Shown here: in pieces, positions 35,562-46,658 of the stretch
How positions within the stretch are numbered: the first letter of the stretch is position 1
How the letters are laid out: the number at the start of each line of letters is the position of its first letter
NCBI GenBank assembly: GCA_041480065.1
Contig: JBGOZF010000019.1
Span: forward strand, 1,194 to 65,193
DNA from: Rhodocyclaceae bacterium
GTDB lineage: Bacteria > Pseudomonadota > Gammaproteobacteria > Burkholderiales > Rhodocyclaceae
Length of the DNA stretch: 64,000 bases
Direction of reading: 5' to 3'
Notes under the pieces: generated by a model
Databases searched by the model: none
What the model saw: only the letters and a program-made list of their open reading frames with translations
Told to the model about the DNA's origin: nothing
Made by a program: the position numbers and the translations under genes

Positions 35562-36476
35562 TCAGGCGGCCATGGTCGGCACGATGTCGCCGTCGACGAT
35601 GGTTACCGCCTTGGCCTTCTGCAGTTCCGCCAGCAGCCAGCCGGCCAGCGCCTCGGCGTCCATGCCCAGGAGCCCCGCGCCGACATCGCGGAACAGCGGC
35701 ACGGCCTGAAGGTAGGCTGCAAGGCCGTCCACGGGAAGGCGCTGCAAGTCCAGCAGATTGAACGCGAAGCAGGCCTTGACCGCGTTGCGGGCGATGCGGG
35801 CCGGATCCTTCTCGAAGGCCTCCAGGCGCCGGAACGCCCTTTCCAGCGCCGCGTCGACGTCGTCGAAGGCCGCGCCATGCCCTGGAATGACTGTCGACAC
35901 CGGCAGACGCGACAGTCTTTCCAGCGTCCCACGCGTGGCTTTCAACGCGCCGGTCCTGCCCAGCAGTTCGCCGAAGACGATGCCGAAGCCGTCCTGCCAG
36001 AGGGCGTCGCCGGAGATCAACAGTCGCTTCTCGGCACAGTGGAAGACCAGCGCCTCCATGTCGTGGCCCGGCGCGGCGAGCGCACGCCAGACCAAGCCGC
36101 CCATCTCGAACTCCTGGTCCGGCGCGATCACACCGTCATGATGGAAGCGGTCGCCCCGCTGGGCCGCCGGCCCCAGCAGCAGCGCCTCCTCGTCCCAGGC
36201 CGCGACATGGGCCTCGATACCGGCGGGGATCACGATCTCGCAGCCATGAGCGCGCCTGACTGCGGCATTGCCGCCGATATGGTCGGAGTGGGAATGCGTG
36301 TTGATGAGGCGGGTCAGCCGGCGGCCATCCAGCGCTGCCTCGACCAGCGCCAAGGTCTGCGTCGCGTGGCCGACATAGCCGCTGTCGACCAGCGTGGCCG
36401 TCTCGCCTTCGAAGAAGAGGATGTTGTTCGACGAAAGCCAGCCGCGCTCGATGATGCGAAGCCGCGGCAACACCAT
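35562..36476 (-). CDS. MBL-fold metallo-hydrolase
   Basis: Zn-binding motif INTHSHSDHIGGN plus downstream His/Asp ligands. Start at MVLPRLRII, overlapping the HMG-CoA lyase stop (TGATG). Confidence 0.7.
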   Translation of the reverse strand: MVLPRLRIIERGWLSSNNILFFEGETATLVDSGYVGHATQTLALVEAALDGRRLTRLINTHSHSDHIGGNAAVRRAHGCEIVIPAGIEAHVAAWDEEALLLGPAAQRGDRFHHDGVIAPDQEFEMGGLVWRALAAPGHDMEALVFHCAEKRLLISGDALWQDGFGIVFGELLGRTGALKATRGTLERLSRLPVSTVIPGHGAAFDDVDAALERAFRRLEAFEKDPARIARNAVKACFAFNLLDLQRLPVDGLAAYLQAVPLFRDVGAGLLGMDAEALAGWLLAELQKAKAVTIVDGDIVPTMAA

Positions 36477-37378
36477 CACCGCCTGGCGATCAGCGCCCGT
36501 GCCACCCGCGAATTCGATTCGCGTCCGAGCTGTTGCGAGATCCAGACGCCAGTTTCGGCCAGCCGCAGCAAATCGATGCCGCTCTCGATGCCCAGTCCCT
36601 GCAACAGCCAGACCACATCCTCGGTGGCGACATTGCCTGCCGCGCCCGGCGCGTAGGGGCAACCGCCGAGACCGGCGACAGAGGCGTCGAACACTCCCAT
36701 GCCCATCTCCAGCGCCGCATAGATGTTGGCGATCGCCATGCCGTAGGTGTCGTGGAAATGGCCGGCGATCTTCTTGAGCGGCGCGCGCCGCGCCACGGCC
36801 TCGATCATCGCCTTGATCTTGAGCGGCGTGCCGACGCCGATGGTGTCGCCCAGGCTGACTTCGTAGCAGCCCATCTCGAGCAGGGAGCGGGTCAGGTCGG
36901 CCACCAGCTTCGGCGCCACCTCGCCCTCGAACGGGCAGCCGAGCACGCACGACAAATAGCCGCGCACCTTGATGTCGGCCTCTTTGGCGGCTTCGATGGC
37001 GGCCCGGAAGCGTTCGAACGATTCGGCGATCGAGCAGTTGATGTTCTTCTGCGAGAAGGATTCCGAGGCGGCGCCGAACACCGCGACCTCCTTCGCACCC
37101 GCTGCCAACGCAGCCTCCAGCCCTTTCATGTTCGGCACCAGCACCGGGTAGGCAACACCCTCGCGCTGCGGAAGCGCGCGCATCAGTTCGGCGCTCTCGG
37201 CCATCTGCGGCACCCACTTCGGCGACACGAAGGCGCCCGCCTCGACGGTCTTGAGCCCGCAGGCGGCAAGACGGTCGATCAGTTCCGCCTTGACCGCGAC
37301 CGGCAGGATGCGGGCCTCGTTCTGCAGCCCGTCGCGAGCGCCCACTTCGACGATGCGGACATTGCGGGGCAGAGTCAT
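36476..37378 (-). CDS. liuE: Hydroxymethylglutaryl-CoA lyase
   Basis: VEVGARDGLQNE, HFHDTYGMAIANIYAALEMG, GLGGCPYA: HMGL signature motifs across the full length. Confidence 0.85.
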   Translation of the reverse strand: MTLPRNVRIVEVGARDGLQNEARILPVAVKAELIDRLAACGLKTVEAGAFVSPKWVPQMAESAELMRALPQREGVAYPVLVPNMKGLEAALAAGAKEVAVFGAASESFSQKNINCSIAESFERFRAAIEAAKEADIKVRGYLSCVLGCPFEGEVAPKLVADLTRSLLEMGCYEVSLGDTIGVGTPLKIKAMIEAVARRAPLKKIAGHFHDTYGMAIANIYAALEMGMGVFDASVAGLGGCPYAPGAAGNVATEDVVWLLQGLGIESGIDLLRLAETGVWISQQLGRESNSRVARALIARR

Positions 37379-37690
37379 GCTCTTCCTGCCGGGACTTGGG
37401 GGCTGTCGGTGGACATGATCATCAGGTTCATGGGAACGATACTATGCCGGCTCGAACGAAATCTGCAAAGCCCACTGCCAATGGAAGATCCGGCCGACCC
37501 GACGTTCCGCTACACCAGGTTTCAAACGTGGTTTCGCCTACGTGGGCTGGCGACATGTCCGACTTGCTCGGCACGCCTTCGCTACGGCCATGTCGGCATA
37601 ACCCGACGCCGTCTGCTTTCTATTCCTTAAGTATCATTGTTGCTATAGTGGACGATGTGCAATCAGGCCCAGCCCCAGAGGGAGAATATA

Positions 37691-38137
37691 GTGGAAAGAA
37701 AGATTCTGTTGGTCGAAGACAATCCGGATGACGAGTTCCTGGCCTTGCGGGCGCTGCGGAAGAACAACGTGGCAAACGAGGTCATCGTCGCCCATGACGG
37801 ATTGGAGGCGCTGGACTACCTGTTCGGCGAAGGCACGCAAGCCGGCCGGGAACGGCTGGTACCGGAGGTCATCCTGCTCGATCTCAAGTTGCCGAAGATC
37901 GATGGGCTGGAAGTGCTGCGCCGCATCCGCGCCGACGAGCGCACCCGGCGCATTCCCACTGTGATCCTTACGACATCGGGCGAAACGATCGACATCGAGA
38001 CCAGCTACGACAACGGCTGCAACAGCTACATCCGCAAGCCGGTCGACTTTGAACAGTTCATCGATGCGGTGCGCCAACTTGGTCTCTACTGGCTGGTGCT
38101 GAACACGACGCACAGGTCCGACACACTGGCTTCCTGA
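37691..38137 (+). CDS. Single-domain response regulator (REC)
   Basis: GTG start after a GGGAGA RBS. KILLVEDNPDDEFL...VILLDLKLPKIDGLEVLRRIR...IRKP: receiver domain with conserved Asp pocket and Lys. Confidence 0.75.
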   Translation: MERKILLVEDNPDDEFLALRALRKNNVANEVIVAHDGLEALDYLFGEGTQAGRERLVPEVILLDLKLPKIDGLEVLRRIRADERTRRIPTVILTTSGETIDIETSYDNGCNSYIRKPVDFEQFIDAVRQLGLYWLVLNTTHRSDTLAS

Positions 38138-38142
38138 CCCTC

Positions 38143-39894
38143 ATGCCGGAAGTCCTGGTCAAGCTCCTGTTCGTCGAGGATGTCGAAGACGATGTATTGC
38201 TCATCGTTCGCCAACTCCGCCAGGGGGGCCTGATAGTCGATTACCAGCGAGTCGACTCGGCCAGGACACTCGAAGCTGCGCTCGACCAGCGCGATTGGGA
38301 CATCGTCGTCACCGATCACAACATGCCCGGTTTCGACTCCGGCGCCGCGCTCGAAATCGTGCGCCACCACAATCCCGACCTGCCCGTGATCATCGTCTCC
38401 GGCAGCATCGGCGAGGAAGTGGCGGTCGAGGCGATGCGCATGGGCGCCAAAGACTACATCATGAAGGACAACCTGCGTCGACTGGTGCCGGCGGTCCGGC
38501 GCGAACTCGACGACGCCGGCGCCAGGCAAGGCCGCCGCGAGGCGGAAGCCGCCATGCAGCATCTGGCGCTGCACGACTCGCTCACGGGGCTAAAGAATCG
38601 AACCAGTTTCCAGCGTGGGCTGGAAAGGCTGCTTGATCAAGCCCGGCGCCAGGACACCCGGCACAGCCTGCTGTTCCTGGACCTGGACCAGTTCAAGGTC
38701 GTGAACGACACCTGCGGCCACCTGGCCGGCGACGAGATGCTCAAGCAACTGGCGGGCGTGCTGCAGCGCTCCATCCGCACCAACGACCATTTGGCGCGCC
38801 TGGGTGGCGACGAGTTCTGCATCCTGCTCGAGAACTGCGTATTGGAACGCGCCCGGGAAATCGCCGAAACCTTGCGCATCGCGGTGCACGATTTCCGCTT
38901 TCTCTGGAACGGCAAGTTCTTTTCCGTCGGCGTCAGCATCGGCATCGTCGGCATCGATCGCAGCAGCGGCAGCGCCAACGACATCCTGAGCGCCGCCGAC
39001 ATTGCCTGCTATGCCGCGAAGGACCGTGGTCGCGACGCGATCCAGGTCTACGAGCGGGATGATCTGGAACTGACCCGGCGGCGCGGCGAGATGGACTGGG
39101 TGAGCCGTATCGACGACGCGCTGGACGGCGGCCATTTCCAGTTGTGGCGCCAGCCCATCCGCTCCCTCGCCGAAGGCGGCGAGAACCGGGTTCATCATTA
39201 CGAACTGCTGTTGCGCATGCTTGACCAGGACGGTACCGTCGTGCTTCCCGGCGCCTTCCTGCCGGCGGCGGAACGCTATGACCGCATGCGCGATATCGAC
39301 CGCTGGGTGGTCGACAATGCGCTCAAGTATGTCGGCGAGCATCAGGAATCCGGCGAACAGTTTCACGCCATCAATCTGTCCGGCGCGTCGATGGGCGACG
39401 ACAGCCTGCGCGAATTCGTCGGCGACCGGATGACGGCGCACGGCGTCGATCCGCGCAGCATCTGTTTCGAGGTCACGGAGACCGTGGCCATCGGCAACTT
39501 CAAGGCGGCGGTCGATTTCATGCAGAACCTGCGCCGGATCGGCTGCCGCTTTGCCCTCGACGACTTCGGCAGCGGCCTCAGTTCGTTCGCCTATCTCAAA
39601 TCGCTGCCGGTGGATTTCATCAAGATCGACGGCAGATTCATCCGCACCCTAGGCACCGATCCCATGGACCGTGCCATCGTCGAGGCCATCCATCGCGTGG
39701 CGCACGTCGCCAACTTGCGCACCATTGCCGAATTCGTCGAGGATGTCACAGTCATTGACGTACTGCGCGACATCGGCGTGGACTTCGCCCAGGGTTATGC
39801 CATCGGCCGGCCGGAACCGCTACCGATACGTGGCCGGCCGGCCAGAGTGGCCGGGTTGCCCGGAATGGTCCTCTCGGGGAAGAGGACATCATGA
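38143..39894 (+). CDS. Response regulator with REC-GGDEF-EAL architecture (c-di-GMP turnover)
   Basis: REC (LLFVEDVEDD...IVVTDHNMPG...KDYIMKD). GGDEF (RLGGDEFCILL). EAL domain (YELLLRM...DDFGSGLSSFAYLKSLPVDFIKID). Starts 5 nt after the REC gene. Confidence 0.85.
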   Translation: MPEVLVKLLFVEDVEDDVLLIVRQLRQGGLIVDYQRVDSARTLEAALDQRDWDIVVTDHNMPGFDSGAALEIVRHHNPDLPVIIVSGSIGEEVAVEAMRMGAKDYIMKDNLRRLVPAVRRELDDAGARQGRREAEAAMQHLALHDSLTGLKNRTSFQRGLERLLDQARRQDTRHSLLFLDLDQFKVVNDTCGHLAGDEMLKQLAGVLQRSIRTNDHLARLGGDEFCILLENCVLERAREIAETLRIAVHDFRFLWNGKFFSVGVSIGIVGIDRSSGSANDILSAADIACYAAKDRGRDAIQVYERDDLELTRRRGEMDWVSRIDDALDGGHFQLWRQPIRSLAEGGENRVHHYELLLRMLDQDGTVVLPGAFLPAAERYDRMRDIDRWVVDNALKYVGEHQESGEQFHAINLSGASMGDDSLREFVGDRMTAHGVDPRSICFEVTETVAIGNFKAAVDFMQNLRRIGCRFALDDFGSGLSSFAYLKSLPVDFIKIDGRFIRTLGTDPMDRAIVEAIHRVAHVANLRTIAEFVEDVTVIDVLRDIGVDFAQGYAIGRPEPLPIRGRPARVAGLPGMVLSGKRTS

Positions 39895-42029
39895 ACGTTT
39901 CCGCCTGCCTGCTGCGCGTCCTGTTGCTCGCCGCCGGCGCCTTGCCGCTGACCGCCAGCGCCGAAGATCCGCTGCTGCTGATGCTCTCCGGCGACGAGCA
40001 GCTCGTCAGCATCGCCACCGGATCGCCGCGGCCAGTGTCCAAAGCACCTTCGACGGCCACCGTCATCACCGCCGACGACATCAAGGCCACCGGCGCCACC
40101 GATTTGAGCGAAGTGCTGGAGACGGTGCCCGGGCTTCATGTCTCCCGAAGCGGCTTCCTTTGGAGGCCGCTCTATTCGATCCGCGGCATCCTCACGCAAT
40201 ACAACCCGGAAGTGTTGGTCATGCTCAACGGCATTCCGATCACGAACGGCTTCTACGGCAATCGCGGTCAGTTGATGGGCGGGTTTCCCATCGAGCATAT
40301 TTCCCGCATCGAAGTCATTCGTGGCCCGGGTTCAGCCCTGTATGGCGCCGAGGCGGTATCGGGCGTGATCAACATCGTCACCAAGACTGCCGACGAAATT
40401 GACGGCACCGAAACAGGTCTGCGCGCGGGCTCCTTCCGCAGCTACGACGGCTGGATCCAGCACGGCGGCAAGTGGGGCGAGATCGATGTCGCTGCCTACC
40501 TGCGTTTGGGCAGCACCGCCGGCTCCCGCCGTACGGTGGAAGCCGATGCCCAGACCTTGCTCGATGGCAAATCCGGCACGCACGCTTCCAATGCACCGGG
40601 GCCCGTCAATGTCGGCTCCGACTCAATCGACGCGCGGCTGGATGTATCGCACGACAAATGGCGCTTTCGCGGCGGATATATCGGTCGCCCCAACAATCAT
40701 GGAACAGGCACAGGCGTCGCGGACGCATTGGACCCGATAACCAAGGCTGACGCGTATTACGCCAACGCCGATCTGACCTGGCATGACGCCAAGTTCAGCC
40801 AGAACTGGGATGTCTCCATCCAAGCGAGCTACTACGACATCGCGGAAACCAATTCCGACGTCACCCTGTTTCCGGCCGGTTCCGCATTGCCGCTGCCGCT
40901 TCCGGGTGGTGCACCGTCCGCCATCGGCATGGTCGGGCGGCCCCAGCACTGGGAACGACAGGAGCGCCTGAATCTGGCGGCGCTCTACGCCGGCTTCGAG
41001 AAGCACAAGCTGCGACTGGGCGCCGGCTACAACCTGGACGATATGTACAAGGTCACCGAAACCAAGAATTTCACTTTCGTAACCCTCCCGGTACTGGGAA
41101 ACGTGCCGATTTGCCTGGACCTCAACTGCTCGACGGTCGCGGCCACCCCGTCGAATGGCCTCTACTTCCTGACCCCGCACGCGCGCCGCTCGGTGTACGC
41201 TTATGCCCAGGACGAGTGGCTTCTGGCGCCCGACTGGTATCTGACCGCCGGTCTGCGCCAAGACCATTACTCGGATTTCGGCAGCACCACCAATCCGCGC
41301 GCCGCCCTGGTCTGGGATACCGCCTACAACCTCACCAGCAAACTGATGTTCGGCCGTGCCTTTCGTGCGCCGTCCTTCGTCGAGCTATACACGATCAACA
41401 ACCCGACGGCCCTCGGCAATCCGAATCTCAAGCCCGAGACCATCAGCACGACGGAACTGGCCTTCTCCTGGCAAGCGAAGCCCAACCTCAAGACCGGCCT
41501 CAACCTGTTCCATTACCGGATGAAAGACGTGATCCGCTTCGTCTCCAATGCCGATCCGACGACCGGCAGCACGGCCCAAAATGCGGGCAATCAGCACGGC
41601 AGGGGCCTGGAACTGGAATTCACCTGGGGCGCCGCGGACGATCTTAGGTTATCGGGCAACTATGCCTATCAACATTCGATCGACGAGAACACCAACCAGG
41701 ATGCCGGCCTGGCGCCCCACCACCATGCCTATCTGCGCACAGATTGGCGCTTCATTCCCGGTTGGACGCTAAGCGGCCAGGTGAATTGGGTCGCCGATCG
41801 CATGCGCCAAGCTATCGACAGCCGTCCGAAGATCGCCGACTACACCACCGCCGACCTGACCCTGCGCACCACGCAACTGCGCAAGGATTGGGAATTCGCG
41901 TTCTCGGTGCGCAACCTGTTCAACGTCGATGCCCGCGAGCCGACCGCGGAATCCTCTGCTGCCAATATTCCCAATGACCTGCCGCTGCCCGGACGCAGCC
42001 TCTATCTTGAGTTGCGTTACCGCCTGTAG
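39891..42029 (+). CDS. TonB-dependent-receptor-like outer membrane protein, paralog 1 (plug + 22-strand barrel-like region)
   Basis: Signal peptide. Plug motifs ATVITADDIKATGATDLSEVLETVPG and IEVIRGPGSALYGAEAVSGVINIVTK. Long barrel region with NP.LKPE and FRAPSF(V/I)E motifs. ATGA overlap with the GGDEF-EAL stop. The C-terminal residue is Leu rather than the usual Phe/Trp. Confidence 0.8.
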   Translation: MNVSACLLRVLLLAAGALPLTASAEDPLLLMLSGDEQLVSIATGSPRPVSKAPSTATVITADDIKATGATDLSEVLETVPGLHVSRSGFLWRPLYSIRGILTQYNPEVLVMLNGIPITNGFYGNRGQLMGGFPIEHISRIEVIRGPGSALYGAEAVSGVINIVTKTADEIDGTETGLRAGSFRSYDGWIQHGGKWGEIDVAAYLRLGSTAGSRRTVEADAQTLLDGKSGTHASNAPGPVNVGSDSIDARLDVSHDKWRFRGGYIGRPNNHGTGTGVADALDPITKADAYYANADLTWHDAKFSQNWDVSIQASYYDIAETNSDVTLFPAGSALPLPLPGGAPSAIGMVGRPQHWERQERLNLAALYAGFEKHKLRLGAGYNLDDMYKVTETKNFTFVTLPVLGNVPICLDLNCSTVAATPSNGLYFLTPHARRSVYAYAQDEWLLAPDWYLTAGLRQDHYSDFGSTTNPRAALVWDTAYNLTSKLMFGRAFRAPSFVELYTINNPTALGNPNLKPETISTTELAFSWQAKPNLKTGLNLFHYRMKDVIRFVSNADPTTGSTAQNAGNQHGRGLELEFTWGAADDLRLSGNYAYQHSIDENTNQDAGLAPHHHAYLRTDWRFIPGWTLSGQVNWVADRMRQAIDSRPKIADYTTADLTLRTTQLRKDWEFAFSVRNLFNVDAREPTAESSAANIPNDLPLPGRSLYLELRYRL

Positions 42030-42068
42030 CCGCATGATCGGCGCGATTCTCTCGGACAGGAAGACATC

Positions 42069-44207
42069 ATGAGCGCCGATTGCCACTGCCTGCTGCGTCT
42101 GGCGTTGTTCGCCGCAGGGGCATTCCCGCTGGCCGCAAGCGCCGAAGATCCGCTCCTGCTGATGCTGTCCGGCGACGAGCAGCTCGTCAGCCTCGCCACC
42201 GGGTCGCCGCGGCCGGTCTCCAAGGCGCCTTCGACGGCCACTGTCATCACCGCCGACGACATCAAGGCCACGGGCGCCACCGATTTGAGCGAAGTGCTGG
42301 AGACCGTGCCTGGGCTTCATGTCTCCCGCAGCGACTTCCTTTGGAAGCCGCTCTATTCGATCCGCGGCATCCTCACGCAGATGAACCCGGAAGTGCTGGT
42401 GATGCTGAACGGCGTCCCCATGACCACTGGCCTCTATGGCGACCGGGGTCGCCTGATGGCCGGCTTCCCGCTCGAGCATGTTTCCCGTATCGAGGTGATA
42501 CGAGGCCCGGGTTCGGCGCTGTACGGTGCCGAGGCTGTGTCGGGCGTCATCAATATTGTCACCAAGACCGCCAAAGAAATTGACGGCACCGAAACAGGTC
42601 TGCGCGCGGGCTCCTTCGACACCTACGACGGCTGGGTCCAGCACGGCGGCAAGTGGGGTGAGGTCGATGTCGCCGCCTACCTGCGCTTGGGGCACACCGC
42701 GGGCTTTCGCCGTACAGTGACGGCCGACGCCCAGACCGCACTCGATAGCGCGTTCGGCACCCACGCTTCCAATGCACCAGGGCCAATCAATACCGGTTAC
42801 GACTCCATCGACGCACGGCTGGATCTATCGTACGACAAGTGGCGCTTTCGCACCGGCTACATCGGTCGCCCCAACAATCATGCACTTGGCGCTGGCGTCG
42901 CGGATGCGCTCGACCCAATATCCGCGGCTAACGCGCATTACGCAAACGCCGATCTGACCTGGCATGACGCCAAGTTCAGCCAGAACTGGGATATCACGGT
43001 CCAGGCAAGCTATTACGACATCGCCGAGACCAACAGCGACGTCATCCTGTTTCCGGCCGGTTCTGCGCTGCCATTGCCGCTGACCGGCGGCAGGGGTTCC
43101 ACCATAGGCATGGTCGGACGGCCCCAGAATTGGGAACGGCAGGAACGACTGAACCTGTCGGCTCTCTATGGCGGATTCGAAAAGCACAAGCTGCGCGTCG
43201 GGGCCGGCTACAACGTGGACGACGTGTACAAGACCACTGAGACCAAGAACTTCACGTTCGATGGCATCTGGCCGGTGTGCATCAACCTCGACTGCTCGAC
43301 AGTCACGGCCACCCAGGCCAACGGACTGCTCTACCTGTCGCCGCATCTACGCCGCTCCCACTACGCATACGCCCAGGACGAATGGGGCTTAGCACCCGAC
43401 TGGACCCTGACAGCCGGATTGCGCCACGACCGCTATTCCGATTTCGGCGGCACCACCAATCCGCGCCTCGCCGTCGTCTGGGACACGGCCTACAACCTGA
43501 CCACCAAGCTGATGTTCGGCCGGGCCTTCCGGGCACCCAGCTTCATCGAGTTCTACAGCATCAACAACCCGGTGTCGCGCGGCAATCCGAATCTCAAGCC
43601 CGAGACCATCAGCACGACGGAACTGGCCTTCGCGTGGCAAGCAAAGCCCAACCTCAAGACCGGCCTCAACCTGTTCCATTACCGGATGAAGGACGTGATC
43701 CGCTGGATCGCGAATGCCGACCCCACCACCGGCAAGACCGCCCAGAACGCCGGCAACCAGCACGGCAGCGGTCTGGAGCTGGAATTCGCCTGGGATGCAT
43801 CCAGCGATCTGCGGCTATCCGGAAACTACGCCTACCAGCGCTCCATCGACGAGAACACGAATCAGGATGCCGGCCTGGCGCCGCATCATCATGCCTATCT
43901 GCGCACGGATTGGCGCTTCGTTCCAGGCTGGACGCTGAGTGGCCAGGTAAACTGGGTCGCGGATCGGATGCGCCAGGCCATCGATAACCGTCCGAAGATT
44001 TCCGACTACACCACCGCCGACCTGACCTTGCGTACCGGCGAGTTGCGCAAGGACTGGGAACTCGCTTTCTCGGTGCGCAACCTGTTCAACGCCGATGCCC
44101 GCGAGCCGACACCGGGACCGAGCACCCCCGGTACTCCGCCCAACATTCCCAACGACCTGCCCCTGCCCGGACGCAGCATCTATGTTGAGTTGCGAATTCG
44201 ACACTGA
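42069..44207 (+). CDS. TonB-dependent-receptor-like outer membrane protein, paralog 2 (tandem duplicate of 39891-42029)
   Basis: Same length (712 aa) and the same motifs. By eye well above 80% nucleotide identity over the 5' half. The duplicated unit includes about 22 nt upstream of the ATG. Confidence 0.8.
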   Translation: MSADCHCLLRLALFAAGAFPLAASAEDPLLLMLSGDEQLVSLATGSPRPVSKAPSTATVITADDIKATGATDLSEVLETVPGLHVSRSDFLWKPLYSIRGILTQMNPEVLVMLNGVPMTTGLYGDRGRLMAGFPLEHVSRIEVIRGPGSALYGAEAVSGVINIVTKTAKEIDGTETGLRAGSFDTYDGWVQHGGKWGEVDVAAYLRLGHTAGFRRTVTADAQTALDSAFGTHASNAPGPINTGYDSIDARLDLSYDKWRFRTGYIGRPNNHALGAGVADALDPISAANAHYANADLTWHDAKFSQNWDITVQASYYDIAETNSDVILFPAGSALPLPLTGGRGSTIGMVGRPQNWERQERLNLSALYGGFEKHKLRVGAGYNVDDVYKTTETKNFTFDGIWPVCINLDCSTVTATQANGLLYLSPHLRRSHYAYAQDEWGLAPDWTLTAGLRHDRYSDFGGTTNPRLAVVWDTAYNLTTKLMFGRAFRAPSFIEFYSINNPVSRGNPNLKPETISTTELAFAWQAKPNLKTGLNLFHYRMKDVIRWIANADPTTGKTAQNAGNQHGSGLELEFAWDASSDLRLSGNYAYQRSIDENTNQDAGLAPHHHAYLRTDWRFVPGWTLSGQVNWVADRMRQAIDNRPKISDYTTADLTLRTGELRKDWELAFSVRNLFNADAREPTPGPSTPGTPPNIPNDLPLPGRSIYVELRIRH

Positions 44208-45144
44208 CGGACGGCTCCGCGCCAGGCGCTTGCTCGCACTCGCCGCCACTGCGCTCTGCCTGCTGTCGCTCGCCGGCGGCGCGCGAGCGGAAACTCGCAT
44301 CAGCGTGCTCTATCCCGAATCCGCCACGCCTGTTGTCAGGCTCTACCAAACCATCGTGGAAGGCATGGCCCGGGCGGGCGACGTGCGCCTGCAAAGCCGC
44401 GCGATTTCCGAAAGGGATTCCCCCGAGGAAATCAAAGCCTGGGTTTCAGCCAACCAGAGTCAGGTGGCCGTCGTCCTCGGCGATTTGCCGCTGGCGGTGA
44501 CCGGATCGCTGGCCACGACGATGCCGCTGATCTATGGCGCCGGCGCCTTGAGCGACAATGCCCGCCCCGGCGTCAGCCTGGCTTCCAGCCCGGCTCAGAT
44601 GTTCAGCCGCCTCCGGCAGATCAAACCCGACGTCGAGCGGGTGTTCGTGGTCTACAAGCCGCAGGCGACCGGCTGGCTGATCGCTGCCGGCCGCGCGGCT
44701 GCACGCGATCAGGGCCTCGAACTGGTCGCCAGTGCCTGCGACGACGTCCAGCAGGCAGGGGCGGCGTTCGGCCGCATCCTGCAACAGGCACGACCCGGCA
44801 AGGATGCCATCTGGCTCACGCTGGATCCGGTCGTACCGGTCAACCAGTTGTTGCCGGTGTTGTTGCGCGAGTCCTGGGACAAACACCTGGTACTGTTCTC
44901 CAACAACCCCGTGGACGTGGCCAAGGGTGCGCTGTTCGCGCTCTATCCCGACTACCCGACCATGGGGCGGCAACTCGCCGAGCGGGCCAAACGCCAACTG
45001 GCAAGACCTTCCCAGGCCGGCCCCGAAGCCAGCGAACACTTGAACGCAGCACTGAATACGCGCACGGCCTCCCATCTGGGTATCGTGCTGGGTGAGCAAC
45101 AGCAGCAGGCGTTCGACCGGATCTTTCCGGAGACCGACAAGTGA
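44182..45144 (+). CDS. Periplasmic binding protein of the uncharacterised ABC-type substrate-binding family (PF04392-like), often partnered with sensor kinases
   Basis: Signal peptide RRLLALAATALCLLSLAGGARA. RISVLYPES...VAVVLGDLPL...VFVVYKP... is an SBP-like alpha/beta fold. The first ATG lies 26 nt inside the TBDR2 3' end, so the start is uncertain. Confidence 0.55.
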   Translation: MLSCEFDTDGRLRARRLLALAATALCLLSLAGGARAETRISVLYPESATPVVRLYQTIVEGMARAGDVRLQSRAISERDSPEEIKAWVSANQSQVAVVLGDLPLAVTGSLATTMPLIYGAGALSDNARPGVSLASSPAQMFSRLRQIKPDVERVFVVYKPQATGWLIAAGRAAARDQGLELVASACDDVQQAGAAFGRILQQARPGKDAIWLTLDPVVPVNQLLPVLLRESWDKHLVLFSNNPVDVAKGALFALYPDYPTMGRQLAERAKRQLARPSQAGPEASEHLNAALNTRTASHLGIVLGEQQQQAFDRIFPETDK

Positions 45145-46658
45145 AGACGACGCGCCTGGCCGATCGGCTCGGACAGCTTAGCGTACGCAAGTCGCTGGCG
45201 CTCGCGACCATTCCCCTGACATTGCTCGGCGCGCTGGCCATCGGCCTGGTCACGGCCGCGCTGTCTACCGAAGAGGTCGCCCAGTACCACGTCCGTGCCG
45301 GTGAGCAGATGACAGCCACGCTTGCGCAGCGCAGCGACCTGGCATTGTTGTATGAAAGCAGCACCGCCATCGCCGAGACGGCCGATTCGCTTTTGAGCAA
45401 TCCGCTGGTGCGAGAAATCCGCGTCGTCGGAAAGACGGGCAAATTGCTTTTCAGCAAGACCAACGGCGCAAGCCATCCATGGAGCTACCCCGCCGCGCCG
45501 AGAGAAGGGACGGCCACGGCGGAACTGGACGACGTCTGGGTATTCGCGCGGCAAGTCAGGACCGCGGCGCCGACGTCGACCGATCCGCAGATACCGGAAG
45601 CAGCGCTGCTCGGAAACACCGGCAACGAAGTCCTGGGCGAGGTTCAACTCGCGCTCGGCAAGGATGCGCTGGTCAAGGCGCGCAGCATCATCTTCTTCGG
45701 CAACCTGTTCACCGCCCTGGGGTTCTCGCTGCTGGTGGTGATCGCCATGCTGCTGCTGGTGCGCAGATTCAGCCGCCCTCTCGAGGCCTTGGCCGACGCC
45801 ATGCGTGAAGCCCGCGACGGCGGCTGGACGGAACCCGAGCGGCTCGATGGGCCACGCGAAATCCGCGAGATCAGCGAAAGCTACAACGCGTTGATGAATA
45901 CCTTGCGCTCGCGCGAGGAAGAACTGCGCGACTTCAACCAGGACCTCGAAGACCGCATCCGCCAGCGTACCCAGGCGCTCGAAGCCGCCAACAAGGAACT
46001 GGAGGCCTTCAGTTACTCCGCCTCTCACGACCTGCGCGCGCCGCTGCGCGCGATCGACGGCTTCGGCAAGGCGCTGCTGGAAGACTACGCGCCATCGCTC
46101 GACCCCACGGCCCAGAATTACCTGAACCGCATGCGCGAGGGGGCCCGGCGCATGAGCGAACTCATCGACAACCTGCTGAAGCTGTCTCGCGTGACGCGCT
46201 ACGAGATGCAACGCACAAACGTGGACATGAGCGAGTTGGCGAGCGTTGTGGTCGCCCAGTTGCGCGAGCAGTATCCCGCCCACCCGGTCGACTTCCGCAT
46301 GTCGCCCAACATGCAGGTCCGGGCGGACCCGAACCTGCTGCGCATCGCGCTCGACAACCTGCTCGGCAACGCCTGGAAATACACCGGCCGGGTGACAAAC
46401 GCCCGCGTGGAGTTCGACCAAATCAGCCGCGACCACGAAACGGTCTATGTGCTGCGCGACAACGGCGCCGGTTTCGACATGCGCTTTGCCGACAAACTAT
46501 TTGGCGCATTCCAGCGCCTGCACGGCAGGGAGTTCGACGGCAACGGCATCGGCCTCGCCATCGTCCAGCGCATCCTGATCCGCCACGGCGGCCGCATCTG
46601 GGCCGAAGCCGAATTGAACAAGGGCGCGTCTTTCTATTTCACGCTGCCGGACTCTTAG
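45141..46658 (+). CDS. Sensor histidine kinase (2 TM, periplasmic domain, HAMP, HisKA, HATPase_c)
   Basis: GTG start overlapping the SBP stop (GTGA). H-box FSYSASHDLRAPLRAI. N/G boxes LLGNAWKYT and DNGAGFDMRFADKLFGAFQRLH...GNGIGLAIVQRI. Confidence 0.85.
   Translation: MKTTRLADRLGQLSVRKSLALATIPLTLLGALAIGLVTAALSTEEVAQYHVRAGEQMTATLAQRSDLALLYESSTAIAETADSLLSNPLVREIRVVGKTGKLLFSKTNGASHPWSYPAAPREGTATAELDDVWVFARQVRTAAPTSTDPQIPEAALLGNTGNEVLGEVQLALGKDALVKARSIIFFGNLFTALGFSLLVVIAMLLLVRRFSRPLEALADAMREARDGGWTEPERLDGPREIREISESYNALMNTLRSREEELRDFNQDLEDRIRQRTQALEAANKELEAFSYSASHDLRAPLRAIDGFGKALLEDYAPSLDPTAQNYLNRMREGARRMSELIDNLLKLSRVTRYEMQRTNVDMSELASVVVAQLREQYPAHPVDFRMSPNMQVRADPNLLRIALDNLLGNAWKYTGRVTNARVEFDQISRDHETVYVLRDNGAGFDMRFADKLFGAFQRLHGREFDGNGIGLAIVQRILIRHGGRIWAEAELNKGASFYFTLPDS

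Follow-up and report, generated by a model that had tools for sequence, protein, structure and literature searches.

Tandem TonB-dependent receptor genes and an associated putative c-di-GMP signalling cassette in a Rhodocyclaceae bacterium

The receptor genes and their products

The DNA analysed here (the window) is a stretch of 64,000 nucleotides (nt) from a Rhodocyclaceae bacterium (GenBank assembly GCA_041480065.1, contig JBGOZF010000019.1, positions 1,194 to 65,193). It carries two genes for TonB-dependent receptors, which lie in tandem within a set of six genes; the other four encode two response regulators, a putative periplasmic binding protein and a sensor histidine kinase (Table 1). 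An earlier reading of the sequence by itself (the original prediction) had described a tandem pair of receptor genes of 712 amino acids (aa) each. This was borne out by the listing of open reading frames (ORFs) and direct reading of the sequence, which place both genes co-directionally on the forward strand with 39 nt between them, and by Pfam analysis, in which each copy was found to possess a plug domain (PF07715, E = 6e-25 and 8e-24) and a TonB-dependent receptor barrel (PF00593, E = 9e-47 and 3e-48).

Table 1. Features of the receptor pair and of the surrounding gene cassette (window coordinates)
Feature	Position	Strand	Basis
TonB-dependent receptor, copy 1	39891..42029	+	Pfam Plug and TonB_dep_Rec_b-barrel; 712 aa; ends LELRYRL
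TonB-dependent receptor, copy 2	42069..44207	+	Pfam Plug and TonB_dep_Rec_b-barrel; 712 aa; ends VELRIRH
Leader and ribosome-binding context of copy 1	39868..39890	+	Contained in the GGDEF-EAL gene, at its 3' end
Spacer between the copies, 39 nt	42030..42068	+	Last 30 nt: remnant of a copied GGDEF-EAL 3' end with ribosome-binding site
Probable gene-conversion tract, codons 26–100 of copy 1 (copy 2 as donor)	39966..40190	+	Identity pattern against L083; quartet sites
First cassette gene, a single-domain response regulator	37655..38137	+	Pfam Response_reg, E = 3.5e-18
Response regulator with GGDEF and EAL domains, putative c-di-GMP output	38143..39894	+	Pfam Response_reg, GGDEF, EAL
Periplasmic ABC_sub_bind-like binding protein with signal peptide	44182..45144 (start predicted)	+	Pfam PF04392, E = 1.5e-6
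Membrane sensor histidine kinase	45141..46658	+	Pfam: periplasmic domain, HAMP, HisKA, HATPase_c

The signal peptide cleavage region reads ASA/ED in both receptors, and a TonB-box-like motif, EQLVS(I/L)A, is present in both. In copy 1 the signal peptide ends at about residue 24 and the motif (EQLVSIA, residues 37–43) resembles ETMVVTA; a phmmer match to Cir begins near it, pairing query residue 36 with chain residue 7. Residues A42, T43 and G44 are invariant across the receptor family. The plug extends to about residue 171 and is followed by a barrel of 22 predicted strands. No Pfam domain of an N-terminal signalling extension was found in either copy, only about 24 residues lying between signal peptide and plug.

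An AlphaFold2 model was made for copy 1 from 56 family sequences (predicted local distance difference test score, pLDDT, 76; predicted template modelling score, pTM, 0.80), and in this model the plug is situated within the barrel. The best structural matches returned by Foldseek were PfeA, FepA, Cir and BtuB (E ~1e-32, template modelling score ~0.65–0.67). The window receptors share with PfeA/FepA, CirA and BtuB a signal peptide, a putative TonB-box-like motif, a plug and a predicted 22-stranded barrel, but are only 18–20% identical to them, with sequence matches to solved structures being mostly limited to the plug. They also differ in ending with Leu or His in place of Phe and in their genetic linkage to signalling genes instead of an inner-membrane ABC importer. 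Neither copy scored high enough for a named NCBIfam receptor subfamily; the nearest was TIGR01783 (siderophore receptor), for which scores of 178.8 and 191.5 bits fell under the curated cut-off of 223.5, so that assignment to it failed. An exact look-up of the copy 2 sequence returned no record. Both ORFs are genuine full-length TonB-dependent receptors.

Age and history of the tandem pair

The two copies are 82% identical, at the nucleotide and the amino acid level alike. The original prediction had considered them near-identical over their 5' halves, which was an overstatement: the 5' halves are 83.5% identical, the 3' halves 81.1%, and only codons 26–100 attain 92%. By the Nei-Gojobori method the synonymous distance between them (dS) is 0.59 and the non-synonymous distance (dN) 0.107, giving a dN/dS of 0.18.

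The age of the pair could be assessed with a contig from another sample, L083, which is syntenic with the window (FimV, HDOD, NusG_II, RapZ, lactamase_B and HMGL lie upstream in both). The nearest database relative of copy 1, P0002 (89%), sits on this contig and has a second receptor gene beside it; the nearest relatives of copy 2 are P0015, P0013 and P0007 at 86%, with the window copies being 83% identical to each other in this comparison. Copy 1 and the first L083 copy are 89.2% identical, copy 2 and the second L083 copy 89.8% (over the 598 residues that lie before the contig end), and all four paralogous comparisons among these genes fall at 80.9–82.8%. The flanks of window and L083 are 87.6–89% identical in nucleotides, similar to the orthologous copies at about 88–89%. 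Values of dS are 0.35–0.44 for orthologs and 0.54–0.67 for paralogs. Quartet-informative sites gave 119 in favour of pairing each window copy with its positional counterpart in L083, 15 for pairing the copies within each genome and 24 for the cross pairing. A Kimura-corrected, bootstrapped neighbour-joining tree, which replaced an earlier noisy neighbour-joining tree based on BLOSUM distances, joined copy 1 with P0002 (bootstrap 100) and copy 2 with the first receptor of L003 and with P0012, P0015, P0013 and P0007 (bootstrap 84).

Since orthologs are closer than paralogs, and the quartet sites and the tree agree with this, the duplication predates the split of the window and L083 lineages. The original prediction of a recent event is thereby refuted and corrected to that of an old, conserved pair. 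A recent duplication confined to this lineage, followed by fast divergence, could account for tandem genes of equal length (712 aa) with a common leader and high identity in codons 26–100; it is nevertheless highly improbable given a dS of 0.59, positional orthologs of both copies at 89–90% in L083, a count of 119 to 15 quartet sites against sisterhood within the genome and the relic of the duplication shared with the more distant locus L086 (described below), and could be revived only if L083 were a chimeric assembly. Measured against its L083 ortholog, dN/dS is 0.13 for copy 1 and 0.16 for copy 2. Both copies are thus kept by purifying selection and, as the ORFs are also intact, both appear to be functional.

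The stop of the GGDEF-EAL gene overlaps the copy 1 start codon (ATGA), and the leaders upstream of the two copies (39868–39890 and 42046–42068) match at 17 of 23 ungapped positions, with a direct repeat, D1, beginning at 39878 and 42059. The window spacer aligns with the final 30 nt of the spacer of L083 (192 nt, L083:10140-10331) with a score of 45 against a shuffle maximum of 20. Part of this longer spacer was in turn copied from the L083 EAL gene, at its 3' end, and has since decayed (local score 45, with a shuffle maximum of 26). The 150-nt spacer of L086 (L086:7851-8000), a more distant two-copy locus, is homologous to that of L083 (score 90, shuffle maximum 28). The sequence between the copies was thus derived from upstream of copy 1, as is to be expected of a head-to-tail junction. 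The leader is shared by both copies because the spacer is a relic of the GGDEF-EAL 3' end, in agreement with the proposal of the original prediction that the unit was copied together with its ribosome-binding context.

Because the junction is common to several lineages, it most likely goes back to one old duplication event. Sequence comparison shows that unequal crossover or slippage copied a unit of about 2.3 kb in an ancestor common to several Rhodocyclaceae-like lineages. The unit began within the GGDEF-EAL gene, roughly 190 nt short of its 3' end, and extended to just beyond the receptor stop. Purifying selection has since acted on both copies, with most divergence arising in the surface loops and with short exchanges by gene conversion still taking place. 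The window lineage apparently lost most of the relic at a later time, between short cggcgc repeats. Directly after copy 1, positions 42027–42036 read TAGccgcATG, a stop codon followed after 4 nt by an ATG, which is the arrangement of receptor/binding-protein junctions elsewhere; the copied unit may have ended just within the binding-protein gene.

The copies do not differ evenly along their length. When mapped on the model, differences between copy 1 and copy 2 affect 25% of positions in predicted extracellular loops against 15% of those in strands (Fisher p = 0.0035); the values for periplasmic turns and for the plug are 12% and 11%, the most diverged predicted loops being L5 (45%) and L11 (31%), each with insertions or deletions. 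Loops and strands differ equally (9%) between copy 1 and its L083 ortholog, so that an excess in loops is seen only between the paralogs. The loop-biased divergence is suggestive, though not proof, of an early divergence in specificity, and it agrees with the original prediction, which had placed the diverged positions in the mid-barrel and loop regions and related them to ligand specificity or to gene conversion.

Gene conversion between the copies, also suggested by the original prediction, was recognised as patchy, short tracts. Codons 26–100 of copy 1 are 92% identical in nucleotides to copy 2 and 91–92% to the second copy of L083, but only 83–87% to the first; the proportion of synonymous differences between the window copies is 0.13–0.26 here vs 0.5–0.7 elsewhere. 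As this segment resembles copy 2 and not its own ortholog, copy 1 was probably converted by copy 2 after the split from L083. The longest run of identical codons is 25, compared with a permutation mean of 14.8 (p = 0.012), runs are fewer than expected (p = 0.012), and the quartet sites that depart from orthology cluster at codons 51–100, 151–200 and 551–650. Later, patchy conversion between the copies is thus probable from the sequence pattern, and clearest in the leader-proximal codons 26–100.

Copy 2 is itself a mosaic. Its codons 76–500 are 88–95% identical in nucleotides to the first-position receptors of L085 and L003, and both of its ends resemble copy 1. As a whole it is 84–87% identical to these first-position receptors, compared with 82.8% to copy 1; at the nucleotide level, window positions 42139–44188 are 85.6–85.9% identical to L085:8071-10108 and L003:10086-12114, while the whole cassettes reach only 77–78%. 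Copy 2, or its central part, might on this account have entered the array by recombination with another lineage, making the pair partly xenologous. The high central identity relative to that of the cassettes, the resemblance of the copy 2 ends to copy 1 and the occurrence of the cassette in three different genomic neighbourhoods would all agree with such an entry. We regard it as rather unlikely, as the relic spacer common to L083 and L086 points to duplication in place and differential loss from a larger ancestral array could also explain the central identity; the same pattern is seen in the second copy of L083, so that any transfer must precede the split of this lineage from the window. A specific history of this kind, with a four-paralog ancestral array followed by differential loss, was also considered as a way of bringing position and sequence similarity into agreement, and found to be unsupported, with backbone bootstraps of 15–44% and a shared spacer relic that favours positional homology.

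In our account the two receptors are long-standing tandem paralogs within a single TonB-dependent receptor family; taken together, its parts on array history, C-terminus and cassette are given a probability of about 0.8. A number of points weigh against it. The deep nodes of the paralog tree have bootstrap values in the low range given above, the gene-conversion statistics are modest (p ~0.01), and the codon bins in which departures from orthology cluster were picked after inspection of the data. The match of the binding protein to its Pfam family is weak (E ~1e-6) and comes without a solved homolog. Position and sequence orthology are also in conflict, copy 2 standing in second position and matching first-position receptors in L085 and L003; the history of the array therefore takes more than one event of duplication, loss or recombination between lineages. 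As a pair of old paralogs, the receptors represent routine birth, death and gene conversion within an outer-membrane receptor family.

A survey of 79 loci from species-representative genomes, mostly of Betaproteobacteria, was used to follow copy number, which the original prediction had proposed to check in other strains. Arrays contained from one to four receptors (66 loci with one, 8 with two, 4 with three and 1 with four), one close relative appearing to be single-copy, and the tandem layout recurred in independent assemblies. Three- and four-receptor arrays (L007:3441-10079, L036:5751-12169 and L037:1611-10064) belong to Hydrogenophilaceae and other metagenome-assembled genomes, and each array is followed by a single binding-protein gene and a single fused-sensor gene. 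In L006 (L006:10118-10260) the second receptor begins immediately behind the stop of the first and is without a clear start codon or a positively charged signal-peptide N-region; it could be a damaged copy or one with a non-standard start.

The chance that the tandem pair is an assembly artefact, a mis-joined or expanded repeat, is close to negligible. Such an error might be suspected from assembly GCA_041494565.1, which is near-identical to the window (1 mismatch in 12,425 nt) and whose contig JBGQBA010000020.1 (L001) ends at window position 42315, 246 nt into copy 2 and inside the stretch most similar to copy 1. A contig break of this kind is usual short-read behaviour at a repeat. Copies with 82% identity are easily separated in reads and cannot collapse, and two-receptor arrays were assembled independently in L002/L004, L003, L005, L006, L083, L084, L085 and L086.

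The C-terminal residues of the receptors

The original prediction drew attention to the non-aromatic endings of both receptors, LRYRL and LRIRH, as atypical of outer-membrane proteins. The endings are as described, and neither Leu nor His conforms to the classical C-terminal aromatic signature. Non-aromatic endings are a family-wide trait, with only the His of copy 2 outside the consensus. An aromatic C-terminus is typical of outer-membrane proteins, with Tyr common at +3 and a positive residue frequent at +2 (PMC3582582). In the consensus beta-signal the last residue may be hydrophobic as well as aromatic (PMC10945584), and an aromatic ending is therefore typical but not obligatory.

Leu is the last residue in 89 of the 120 closest database homologs, Phe in 6 and His in 3. 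The 109 family receptors found in the fetched loci have a C-terminal Leu in 56 cases, Met in 19, Phe in 18, Ile in 4 and His in 1, and other family members terminate in Pro, Gln, Arg or Glu. The C-terminal motif of the family, ...LPLPGRSxYLELRY(R/Q)L, retains the alternation of hydrophobic residues; position -3 is occupied by Tyr or His, and position -2 frequently by Arg or Lys. On this sequence evidence the terminal Leu of copy 1 is the normal beta-signal of the family and fits the consensus, while the terminal His of copy 2 is a rare outlier outside the consensus and probably a tolerated variant. No other outer-membrane proteins were found in the window to serve as a C-terminal control.

It could be argued that copy 2 is drifting towards non-function, since a C-terminal His could not act as a beta-signal; the consensus calls for an aromatic or hydrophobic residue (PMC10945584), and His is found at this position in only 3/120 and 1/109 members of the two sets. 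This is very unlikely for a full-length ORF with a dN/dS of 0.16 against its ortholog, and endings of the ...RIRH or ...RYQH type recur in two further protein clusters, P0017 and P0020, alongside the Pro, Gln, Arg and Glu endings elsewhere in the family. Internal signals are also able to support the assembly of outer-membrane proteins (PMC10945584). A family whose members end in Leu, Met, His or Pro provides a natural set for testing the terminal-aromatic rule of substrates of the β-barrel assembly machinery (BAM).

The predicted start codon of the binding-protein gene lies within the last codons of copy 2 (tAT GTt), resulting in an overlap of 26 nt (44182–44207). In L002, L003, L085 and L086 this ATG lies 4 nt after the TAG stop of the receptor, with no overlap. 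In the window, the overlap could be a constraint on the atypical C-terminus of copy 2, ...VELRIRH.

The six-gene cassette and its proposed function

The genes of the cassette follow the order of single-domain response regulator, response regulator with GGDEF and EAL domains, TonB-dependent receptors (two in the window, one to four across loci), ABC_sub_bind-like protein and sensor kinase. The six-gene form with two receptors was also identified in L002/L004, L003, L005, L006, L083, L085 and L086, and the first-gene response regulator holds the equivalent position in L002, L003, L083, L085 and L086. The N-terminus of the window binding protein aligns with those of L002, L003, L085 and L086 (mature end ...ARA/ETRI); a search of PDB sequences with this protein gave only spurious low-complexity matches. 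Its gene stands beside that of a membrane sensor with a periplasmic domain.

Within the survey set, a receptor lies at most 2.5 kb from a binding-protein gene in 52 of the 79 loci, and a sensor adjoins the binding protein in 50 of these. Many loci have as sensor a single protein of 1480 aa with the domains sCache_4-HAMP-HisKA-HATPase-REC-REC-Hpt-REC-GGDEF-EAL, and others a 706-aa sCache_4-HAMP-GGDEF-EAL protein; binding-protein and sensor modules of this sort lie beside the receptor in L008:7530-15713, L009:7857-13268 and L017:7929-16003. The window kinase is homologous from end to end (residues 6 to 504, E = 7e-37) to the sCache_4-HAMP-kinase section at the N-terminus of the 1481-aa fused sensor of L008. 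Metagenome contigs, too short for copy counts, again carry the receptor together with the binding protein and a sensor. No paper describing this cassette was found in a literature search for the combination of receptor, ABC_sub_bind protein and sensor.

From gene order and domain fusions we infer that the cassette couples TonB-dependent uptake to signalling by cyclic di-GMP (c-di-GMP). The six co-directional and tightly packed genes are taken to form one operon. The receptors would use TonB energy to import a scarce ligand into the periplasm, where the ABC_sub_bind-like protein would capture it and dock on the periplasmic domain of the kinase; it is well established that solute-binding proteins can activate sensors (reviewed in PMC9602780). 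The kinase would then phosphorylate both response regulators, of which the GGDEF-EAL protein would synthesise or break down c-di-GMP. That the window kinase signals to the REC-GGDEF-EAL protein is proposed because relatives fuse these domains. Two receptors with diverged loops would widen or split the range of ligands reaching one sensor.

A more general proposal, to which we give somewhat less than an even chance, is that receptor, binding protein and sCache_4/HAMP sensor represent a widespread signalling route in which TonB-powered uptake starts c-di-GMP signalling, with tandem arrays of one to four loop-diverged receptors as exchangeable 'antennae' of one periplasmic sensor, receptor assembly by BAM through a terminal Leu or Met beta-signal, and a sensor that is either a kinase with separate regulators or the giant kinase-REC-Hpt-REC-GGDEF-EAL fusion. 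The wider interest of the locus lies in this conserved cassette, found mainly in Betaproteobacteria, which would connect TonB-dependent uptake with c-di-GMP turnover by way of a binding protein and a sensor kinase.

Regulatory elements were also looked for. An Rfam scan of 36.5–47.5 kb gave no riboswitch or other RNA family, and a scan for Fur boxes reached at best 12 of 19 positions, with no sign of iron regulation. The promoter scan gave no promoter-like site, and terminator-like sites were fewer than in shuffled sequence, a result that is weakly compatible with a single operon.

Systems in which a binding-protein gene stands beside that of a membrane sensor kinase or GGDEF-EAL protein include TorT-TorS, LuxP-LuxQ, NspS-MbaA and ScrB-ScrC (PMC9602780). 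The unit in the window resembles them in this but adds a dedicated TonB-dependent receptor in one to four copies; its binding protein, predicted to act on the sensor, is of the ABC_sub_bind type (PF04392). With FecA/FecR/FecI it has in common a TonB-dependent outer-membrane receptor that is genetically coupled to signal transduction. Unlike FecA, the window receptors are without a signalling extension, the mature protein starting about 12 residues before the TonB-box-like motif, and they are associated with a periplasmic binding protein and a histidine kinase in place of the anti-sigma/sigma pair FecR/FecI.

A similar logic, with the imported molecule being sensed in the periplasm, is seen in Bacteroidota, where loci for SusC-like TonB-dependent transporters carry a hybrid two-component sensor. 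Compared with these polysaccharide utilisation loci, the window cassette belongs to another phylum, has no SusD partner and has a separate binding protein interposed, and its output would be c-di-GMP and not the transcription of degradative genes.

Among the window, L002, L003, L085 and L086 the six-gene cassette occupies three neighbourhoods, that of the window including positions 36476–37378 and the flanks. These neighbourhoods are marked by HMGL and lactamase_B, by PTPS with the ribosomal proteins S6, S18 and L9, and by ferrochelatase with aminotransferases. Such varied surroundings suggest that the cassette has moved as a unit.

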